Shown here: in pieces, positions 57,917 through 58,573 of the stretch | Layout: every line of letters starts with the position of its first letter | Position numbering within the stretch: position 1 is the first letter of the stretch | Assembly: GCF_003790525.1 (NCBI RefSeq) | Contig: NZ_CP033635.1 | From: Escherichia coli | GTDB lineage: Bacteria; Pseudomonadota; Gammaproteobacteria; Enterobacterales; Enterobacteriaceae | DNA length: 64,000 nt | Reading direction: 5' to 3' (one strand) | Notes under the pieces: generated by a model | What the model was told of the DNA's origin: nothing | What the model saw: the letters and a program-made list of their open reading frames with translations, nothing else | Database searches by the model: none | Program-made: the position numbers and the translations under genes

Positions 57917-58144
57917 CTACATATCAGTCTCTTCAAACATTTCCTGAACAGTACGGCTTATCTGTTCATTCTCATGCTTGTTGGCGTCAGTGTTGATCGC
58001 CGGCAATGTCATCATCGGTTTAACCCGGACATCAGCGCCGGGGAAAATCCGGTGAACCCTCTTGGTCAACTCGCCCAGAATGATATCTTTTGCACCGGGC
58101 AGTCCATCAAAATTCCTTTTGCCATAAACGAGTTCCACGAACAT
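57917..58144 (-). CDS. DinI-family DNA-damage-inducible protein homolog
   Basis: ORF track; 75 aa MFVELVYGKRNFDGLPGAKDIILGELTKRVHRIFPGADVRVKPM..., size and pattern of DinI-like proteins; GAGG RBS; LexA-like box directly upstream. Confidence 0.65.
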   Translation of the reverse strand: MFVELVYGKRNFDGLPGAKDIILGELTKRVHRIFPGADVRVKPMMTLPAINTDANKHENEQISRTVQEMFEETDM

Positions 58145-58159
58145 TGCTCATTGCCTCTT

Positions 58160-58179
58160 TACTGGGTGTATATACAGTA
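58160..58179. promoter_or_regulatory. LexA (SOS) box-like palindrome
   Basis: tactgggtgtatatacagta = CTG-N10-CAG with 17/20 match to TACTGTATATATATACAGTA; between divergent dinI-like gene and the 58220 ORF. Confidence 0.5.
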
Positions 58180-58219
58180 TTTATACTGTGTTTTTATCCG
58201 GTATTCAAGAGAGGGCGTA

Positions 58220-58573
58220 ATGATGCCACGACGCAGCGATATTGAAATAGCCTGGTATTCTTCGATACAGCAAGAGCCGAATGGCCGGAAGACCGTCACT
58301 ACACAGCGATTTGTTCAGGGGTTGAGCAAAGTTAACTGGGAATTCTCACTCAAAGATGCTAATGCCTGGATCGAATCCAGCGTGAGCACTTTTAAATATT
58401 TATCAATGGTAGAGGGGGAAGAACGCACTTTCATGCTCTATAGCCTTGATTTATGCGATGCACATTTCCACAACCTAGTCAGGACAACCTCTTTTCTAAT
58501 AAAATGTAGATGCCTAATTTTAGGCGTCTACATAATTAATGATGATTTATTACAATTATTTTCTAGATACTAA
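58220..58573 (+). CDS. Hypothetical protein (117 aa), no recognisable domain
   Basis: 3' part of ORF track 57974..58573; start chosen at ATGATG with GAGG RBS because the upstream extension overlaps the dinI-like gene and its promoter. Confidence 0.4.
   Translation: MMPRRSDIEIAWYSSIQQEPNGRKTVTTQRFVQGLSKVNWEFSLKDANAWIESSVSTFKYLSMVEGEERTFMLYSLDLCDAHFHNLVRTTSFLIKCRCLILGVYIINDDLLQLFSRY

Follow-up and report, generated by a model that had tools for sequence, protein, structure and literature searches.

The stretch of Escherichia coli DNA analysed here (the window, 64 kb) contains an island that is flanked by kch and yciI and whose gene content is decayed in the RefSeq annotation. The annotated features follow in the order integrase Arm-domain fragment, three pieces of IS3-family transposase, tail-fibre fragment, DinI-like gene, a pseudogene at 58220–58444, an LTA-synthase-family gene, an SRAP pseudogene and yciI. 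The tail-fibre C-terminal fragment (57352–57828, plus strand), which appears in the list of open reading frames and is annotated by RefSeq as 'tail fiber domain-containing protein', marks the end of a former phage late region. The region is 100% identical in 29 complete E. coli genomes, SMS-3-5 (NC_010498.1) and 28 others, an identity that could reflect clonal descent or retention. The same divergent pair, dinI and the plus-strand gene that we call X, is present in phage HK225, the attP of which is annotated as a match to yciI; on this basis, the island is a lambdoid prophage remnant integrated at yciI. Between kch and the tail-fibre fragment, this remnant is split at 56213–57364 by IS3-family transposase genes and fragments together with the integrase Arm-domain fragment.

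The leftward gene of the pair (57917–58144, minus strand, 75 codons) had been called dinI-like in the preliminary description, and the family assignment is sound: the protein matches the Pfam family DinI (PF06183) over model positions 3–61 of 63 (E = 4.3e-15) and the DinI group phrog_189 (E = 1.1e-15). Its score against the NCBIfam equivalog PRK10597 is 24.6 bits, below the cut-off of 111 bits, indicating a phage paralogue and not an orthologue of chromosomal DinI. Comparison with the copies of Ecol_545 and the Nissle prophage revealed a TGG to TAG nonsense change that removes the last five residues (57917–57934). The protein of the window ends in ...EETDM, whereas its 80-aa relatives go on with WLVSD or FWLVSE, and the C-terminal acidic helix of the DinI family is therefore incomplete, its conserved W(L/F)VS(D/E) end being absent. 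It should be noted that RefSeq annotates this shortened gene as an intact DinI-like protein.

The rightward open reading frame has its ATG at 58220, a second ATG at 58223 and a stop at 58573. It had been described as unannotated, and its 117-aa product as lacking any recognisable domain; neither statement holds. RefSeq gives a pseudogene at 58220–58444 ('missing C-terminus') and GenBank a 199-aa protein, EcSMS35_1883, while codons 1–75 (58220–58444, plus strand) belong to phrog_3893, as indicated by the profile match, the homologues and the RefSeq pseudogene, and the remaining codons are read-through. Residues 2–75 align with profile positions 1–74 of 79 (E = 3.3e-27), and the true start of the X remnant is likely the second ATG, at 58223. 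The remnant is 57–73% identical to intact members and its predicted winged-helix core is complete; what it lacks is the conserved NPNGGL tail, and from about codon 74–75 onwards 42 unrelated codons replace the tail of the family. NCBIfam holds no family for the plus-strand frame.

To locate the breakpoints, we compared the window by blastn with L016/L018, an intact locus from the same chromosomal site, in which pin, X, a gene for a 129-aa Peptidase_S24 protein, an opposite-strand SRAP gene and yciI follow one another. Homology stops at 58445 and resumes at 60519, inside SRAP. The 2.07-kb segment between these points (58446–60518), recognised from the blastn comparison, its composition and its annotation, shows a drop in GC from about 0.45 to 0.27–0.36 and has a minus-strand gene of the LTA-synthase family. 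It has taken the place of the 3′ end of X, the UmuD′-like gene and the 3′ part of SRAP. The UmuD′-like gene that stands directly after X is thus deleted in the window, and SRAP (YedK-like) is reduced to an N-terminal fragment (60472–60729, minus strand; a RefSeq pseudogene) at the place of the intact 222-aa SRAP of L016/L018. No convincing terminal repeats were found around the insert. Its LTA-synthase-family gene is a sulfatase-like membrane gene, and the segment has no PADLOC match.

These data bear on the role first suggested for the 117-aa product, that of an SOS-induced toxin, abortive-infection or exclusion factor with its hydrophobic C-terminus in the membrane. A frame of 117 open codons behind a good promoter, operator and ribosome-binding site, in an arrangement identical in 29 genomes, would suit a functional protein, and the hydrophobic C-terminal stretch does exist (GRAVY +0.57 for the tail and −0.51 for the head). 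However, this stretch lies wholly within the 42-codon read-through (58445–58573, plus strand, GC about 0.30), which has no homologue outside this lineage; full-length matches to the 117-aa sequence come from the same locus only, and variants of that locus carry frameshifts in the tail that give 96 and 85 aa (P0003, P0004). The family homology ends at 58445, at the junction with the GC-poor insertion, the intact relatives are soluble-looking 79-aa proteins, and RefSeq calls the gene a pseudogene. A PADLOC scan of four proteins, namely intact X, its UmuD′-like partner, the DinI-like protein and the product of the adjacent 597-aa frame, returned no match. We found nothing in support of such a factor and consider it very improbable. 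Judged from its sequence, the 117-aa frame is a chimeric pseudogene, in which a truncated 79-aa phage gene is read into foreign DNA; with the whole winged-helix core surviving, the chimera may retain some residual activity.

A 20-bp CTG-N10-CAG palindrome had been reported between the two starts with 17 of 20 positions equal to the LexA consensus, and both its coordinates and its score were confirmed: box 1, TACTGGGTGTATATACAGTA (58160–58179), differs from TACTGTATATATATACAGTA at three positions. It is proximal to dinI, 15 nt from the start codon of that gene and 40 nt from the first ATG of the plus-strand frame. The palindrome is imperfect, with outer TACTG/CAGTA arms that pair fully and ten inner bases that do not. 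The motif TACTG-N10-CAGTA occurs once in the 64 kb and in none of 100 dinucleotide shuffles, and box 1 is conserved in dinI-linked loci.

For the weight-matrix check that had been proposed, we used a heterology-index (HI) matrix built on 30 E. coli LexA operators of the literature, which gives approximate absolute HI values. On this scale, box 1 has an HI of 2.0, which places it among the strongest operators (leave-one-out values of the known operators, 1.3–12.7). Operators that bind LexA have HI values of about 12.6 or less in the literature, and with this matrix both sites described here (2.0 and 7.7) are inside this range.

The second site shows that the idea of one shared LexA box was correct as to a LexA-like site between the genes but not as to their number: there are two boxes, one beside each gene. 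Box 2, TACTGTGTTTTTATCCGGTA (58184–58203, HI 7.7), which had been overlooked, is proximal to the plus-strand frame and separated from box 1 by 4 bp. Its core is imperfect, CTG-N10-CGG, that is, CCGG where CCAG is expected. In dinI-linked relatives the same position is occupied by TACTGT(G/T)TTTTTATCCAGTA, with CCAG kept and HI values of 3.3–3.6, and the CCGG variant is found in SMS-3-5 and in the Nissle prophage (L003 5261–5280). With a G within the near-invariant CAG triplet, box 2 alone may bind LexA poorly, and CCGG may represent a partly derepressed variant.

Both boxes fall on predicted divergent sigma-70 promoters. That of dinI (58180–58208, minus strand) was read from the sequence as TTGAAT (58208–58203), a 17-nt spacer and TATAAA (58185–58180); it is absent from the promoter-scan list because the scanner accepts only −10 hexamers with T as their sixth base. 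That of the plus-strand gene (58158–58187) was found by the scan and consists of TTTACT, an 18-nt spacer and TATACT. The −10 elements of the two promoters overlap. Box 1 spans the predicted dinI transcription start and the −35/spacer region of the plus-strand promoter, and box 2 spans the −10/start region of the latter and the spacer of the dinI promoter. Whichever box LexA occupies, it should interfere with both promoters.

Conservation of the operator was followed in homologous loci. A LexA box is present upstream of X homologues in 13 of 13 annotated loci (HI 1.0–5.1, 12–41 nt upstream), which comprise E. coli prophages and phages of Escherichia, Klebsiella, Erwinia, Cronobacter, Pantoea and Enterobacter, some without dinI. 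Among 80 IMG/VR loci, 79 of which have upstream sequence, the box was found in 75 (14–43 nt upstream of X). Two boxes occur in this set only in the 12 loci with a divergent dinI, which indicates that the ancestral design was one box per gene.

That the palindrome arose by chance or serves a regulator other than LexA, with both genes outside SOS control, is an exceedingly remote possibility. The site never arose in the shuffles or in 300 Markov simulations of the window; in the latter, sites with HI < 3 were absent and those with HI < 9 averaged 0.11, while the window has one and two, respectively. Boxes 1 and 2 are the two best-scoring sites of the 64 kb, they are adjacent, and they lie on promoters. 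In addition, the box is kept upstream of homologues despite extensive divergence of the DNA.

On the basis of the operators found before X homologues in annotated loci and viral contigs alike, SOS control of the dinI-like gene and the plus-strand gene is very likely. The LexA-like nature of the site, as first proposed, is borne out by its HI score, its overlap with both promoters and its conservation in very diverged phages, and from these same features we infer, as the best reading, that LexA binds at the locus and that both transcripts would be induced by DNA damage.

Four viral loci (L025, L069, L074 and L081) have X and the UmuD′-like gene, but the 300 nt upstream contain no LexA box; two of them, L025 and L069, have other sequence (AGACCC...) in place of the left half of the box.

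The intact family gives the context in which the remnant can be read. Intact X homologues have 79–80 aa and end in ...F(Q/M)LFNPNGGL or ...LRNMGRV(F/L). A profile search of 1.84 billion proteins returned 214 cluster representatives of the family (E ≤ 0.001), and a search of viral contigs with a 13-sequence alignment as the query found relatives encoded in at least 575 viral-contig stretches. A UmuD′-like gene follows X in 67 of the 80 viral loci, and some of the others end at a contig edge. It starts −4 to +2 nt from the end of X, encodes 102–129 aa and begins with MGFPSPA.DY. The start of the protein corresponds to the position of the Cys24/Gly25 cleavage site of UmuD, indicating a product that, like HumD of P1, mimics UmuD′ with no need of cleavage. 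The operon is located between the tail-fibre genes and int/attP, and umuC was absent beside the phage umuD′-like genes examined. We found no paper on X in the literature on the X family, humD and lxr; the two-gene LexA-controlled phage operon of X and a UmuD′ mimic is conserved and named in no database.

In the IMG/VR loci (L021–L100) the UmuD′-like partner falls into two size classes, 102–108 aa and 125–129 aa. There is no fixed pairing of these classes with X subtypes, suggesting that modules are exchanged within the operon.

A gene for SRAP (the YedK-like SOS-response-associated peptidase) is convergent to the X–UmuD′ operon in prophages at two chromosomal sites (L016 4633–5301, L018 1653–2321, L002 9026–11043 and the window, 60472–60729), and it appears to be part of the same phage SOS cassette.

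The structure of X was approached by prediction. AlphaFold2 on an alignment of 47 sequences gave a confident model with pLDDT 87 and pTM 0.75 and the order helix-strand-helix-helix-strand-strand, so that the fold is predicted to be a winged helix. A Pfam scan of intact X gave nothing significant (best hit HARP, E 0.18), a PDB sequence search with the X profile gave no match, and structural comparison of the model returned no specific structural relative. A relationship to Lxr of P1 was rejected (hhalign probability 0.1%), as was a relationship to the LexA N-terminal domain at the level of sequence profiles (about 0.1%). The pI of the family ranges from 4.6 to 10.2, and DNA binding is therefore not evident. 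Co-folding of X with the UmuD′-like protein through a 30-residue Gly-Ser linker, a crude trial with a paired alignment of 20 rows, gave a pTM of 0.39, with the domains folding separately, and lends no support to a complex of the two.

The constant UmuD′-like partner places X in SOS and translesion biology. From synteny and co-regulation we take it as a working hypothesis that X is an accessory protein of winged-helix type that works together with the UmuD′ mimic on SOS or translesion functions of the host. In a more specific form, which we put forward tentatively as one possibility, intact X would be an SOS effector made in a fixed ratio with the ready-cleaved UmuD′ mimic, and the pair, often with a DinI paralogue and SRAP, would serve temperate phages of Enterobacterales to reprogramme RecA-filament signalling or translesion synthesis of the host in the course of the SOS response.

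The order and spacing of secondary-structure elements in the model resemble those of the LexA-type winged-helix N-terminal domain. This predicted likeness would fit a split LexA/CI-like regulator, with X as the DNA-binding half and the S24-type domain as the dimerisation half; the partner starts exactly at the cleavage-site glycine (UmuD position), and the two genes are translationally coupled. We nevertheless regard such a regulator as quite improbable.

Another role to be weighed is that of a LexA-controlled antirepressor, comparable to Tum of 186, AntC of N15 and GfoA/GftA of Gifsy. In such a role X would, once the DNA is damaged, bind to the repressor of the phage and so start prophage induction, accompanied by dinI as in the Gifsy and 186 modules. 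Its small size, its direct control by LexA, its location away from the immunity region and the dinI gene that is sometimes next to it recall Tum and the dinI-antirepressor operon of Gifsy (PMC3121763). Yet X is tightly coupled to the UmuD′-like gene and not to any immunity type, and the Gifsy genes are co-directional and near replication genes (PMC3121763). The X-carrying phage mEp390, the one phage checked in this respect, has a main repressor of the LexA family (S24, self-cleaving type), so that no antirepressor would be needed. An antirepressor function is thus unlikely, and an accessory role beside the UmuD′ mimic is preferred here.

Among described systems, lxr/humD of P1 is the closest analogue. 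In both cases divergent genes of a temperate phage flank a LexA operator, one arm leads to a pre-processed UmuD′ homologue, and the LexA-repressed SOS cargo is unrelated to phage immunity; the P1 record annotates a "LexA binding site in the regulatory region of lxr and humD" between the two genes. The differences are that the leftward gene of P1 is lxr (190 aa) and not dinI, that P1 has no X, and that the humD-like gene is deleted in the window.

The dinI-antirepressor-irsA operon of Gifsy-1/2/3 is LexA-controlled, co-directional and located beside replication genes (PMC3121763), and prophage dinI homologues have a LexA box about 15–19 nt upstream of the start codon (PMC8072944, Table 1). What Gifsy and the Tum system of 186 have in common with the window is that a dinI homologue of a prophage, preceded by a LexA box, is linked to a small protein under LexA control. 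In contrast to Gifsy, the genes of the window are divergent and stand beside tail-fibre genes and the attachment site, and the constant partner of X is a UmuD′ mimic. The chromosomal genes dinI and umuDC offer a further parallel, with the same DinI fold family, a LexA operator overlapping the promoter and a missing partner homologous to the UmuD′ portion; the dinI copy of the window is, however, a phage paralogue short of its five terminal residues, and no phage umuC accompanies the umuD′-like genes.

In the Nissle prophage, dinI, the intergenic region with both boxes (CCGG included) and the place after the tail-fibre genes are the same as here, and gene 26 of N15 is likewise a UmuD-like gene after the tail fibre. 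In the Nissle prophage, in N15 (gene 26) and in P1 (humD), the UmuD′-like gene stands directly behind the promoter, without X, whereas the window has a truncated X without the UmuD′-like gene. By these comparisons the locus is a degraded LexA-controlled cargo of dinI and umuD′ type, of a kind known at the ends of temperate phage genomes.

Taken together, the data make it highly probable that what remains at the locus is a phage SOS cassette with its control region preserved and its cargo damaged, in a lambdoid prophage next to yciI, at the end where the tail-fibre genes and the attachment site lie. In the undamaged cell, LexA on the two operators would block both overlapping back-to-back promoters. 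After DNA damage, RecA-stimulated self-cleavage of LexA would allow leftward transcription of the dinI-like gene and rightward transcription of X. In intact relatives, where the stop codon of the winged-helix-like X (79–80 aa) abuts or overlaps the start of the UmuD′-like gene, X and the UmuD′ mimic would, as a best guess, act on host RecA and the translesion machinery. In the window, X lacks its last 4–5 codons and continues into inserted DNA, with the UmuD′-like gene gone and dinI ended by a premature stop. The regulation at the locus is thus probably still live, and its products are probably crippled relics.

For the window itself this matters little. The locus is the decaying end of a prophage, with an SOS switch that probably still acts on broken genes, and the result corrects an attractive but mistaken view, that a chimeric pseudogene encodes an SOS-induced toxin. 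The truncated copy of X points instead to a module widespread in viral contigs, and the remaining interest lies in the X–UmuD′ operon of intact phages. How phages control mutagenesis in the host and the timing of its SOS response is relevant to the induction of prophages by DNA-damaging antibiotics and to the way resistance evolves. Being widespread and experimentally tractable, the X–UmuD′ module is a reasonable small target.

Several minor observations concern the annotation and limits of the family. Intact X (79 aa) is unannotated in mEp390 (L011 2504–2743), Eeyore (L005 3001–3240) and Ecol_545 (L002, about 8361–8600), where short minus-strand frames or a minus-strand pseudogene are annotated over it. 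Apparent natural fusions of X with S24 (P0063, P0075 and P0151) were set aside, as they look like frameshift artefacts. A match of phrog_2341 to residues 1–38 was likewise rejected as a family link, because it reflects a recombinant in ev243-type phages that joins an X N-terminus to a Tfa-like C-terminus. No LexA box was found upstream of this chimeric frame. In ev243 (L102 2001–2306) and similar sequences (H89–H100), the first 29–37 residues are X-like and the remainder is Tfa-like (phrog_2341), and the frame looks like a recombination scar.
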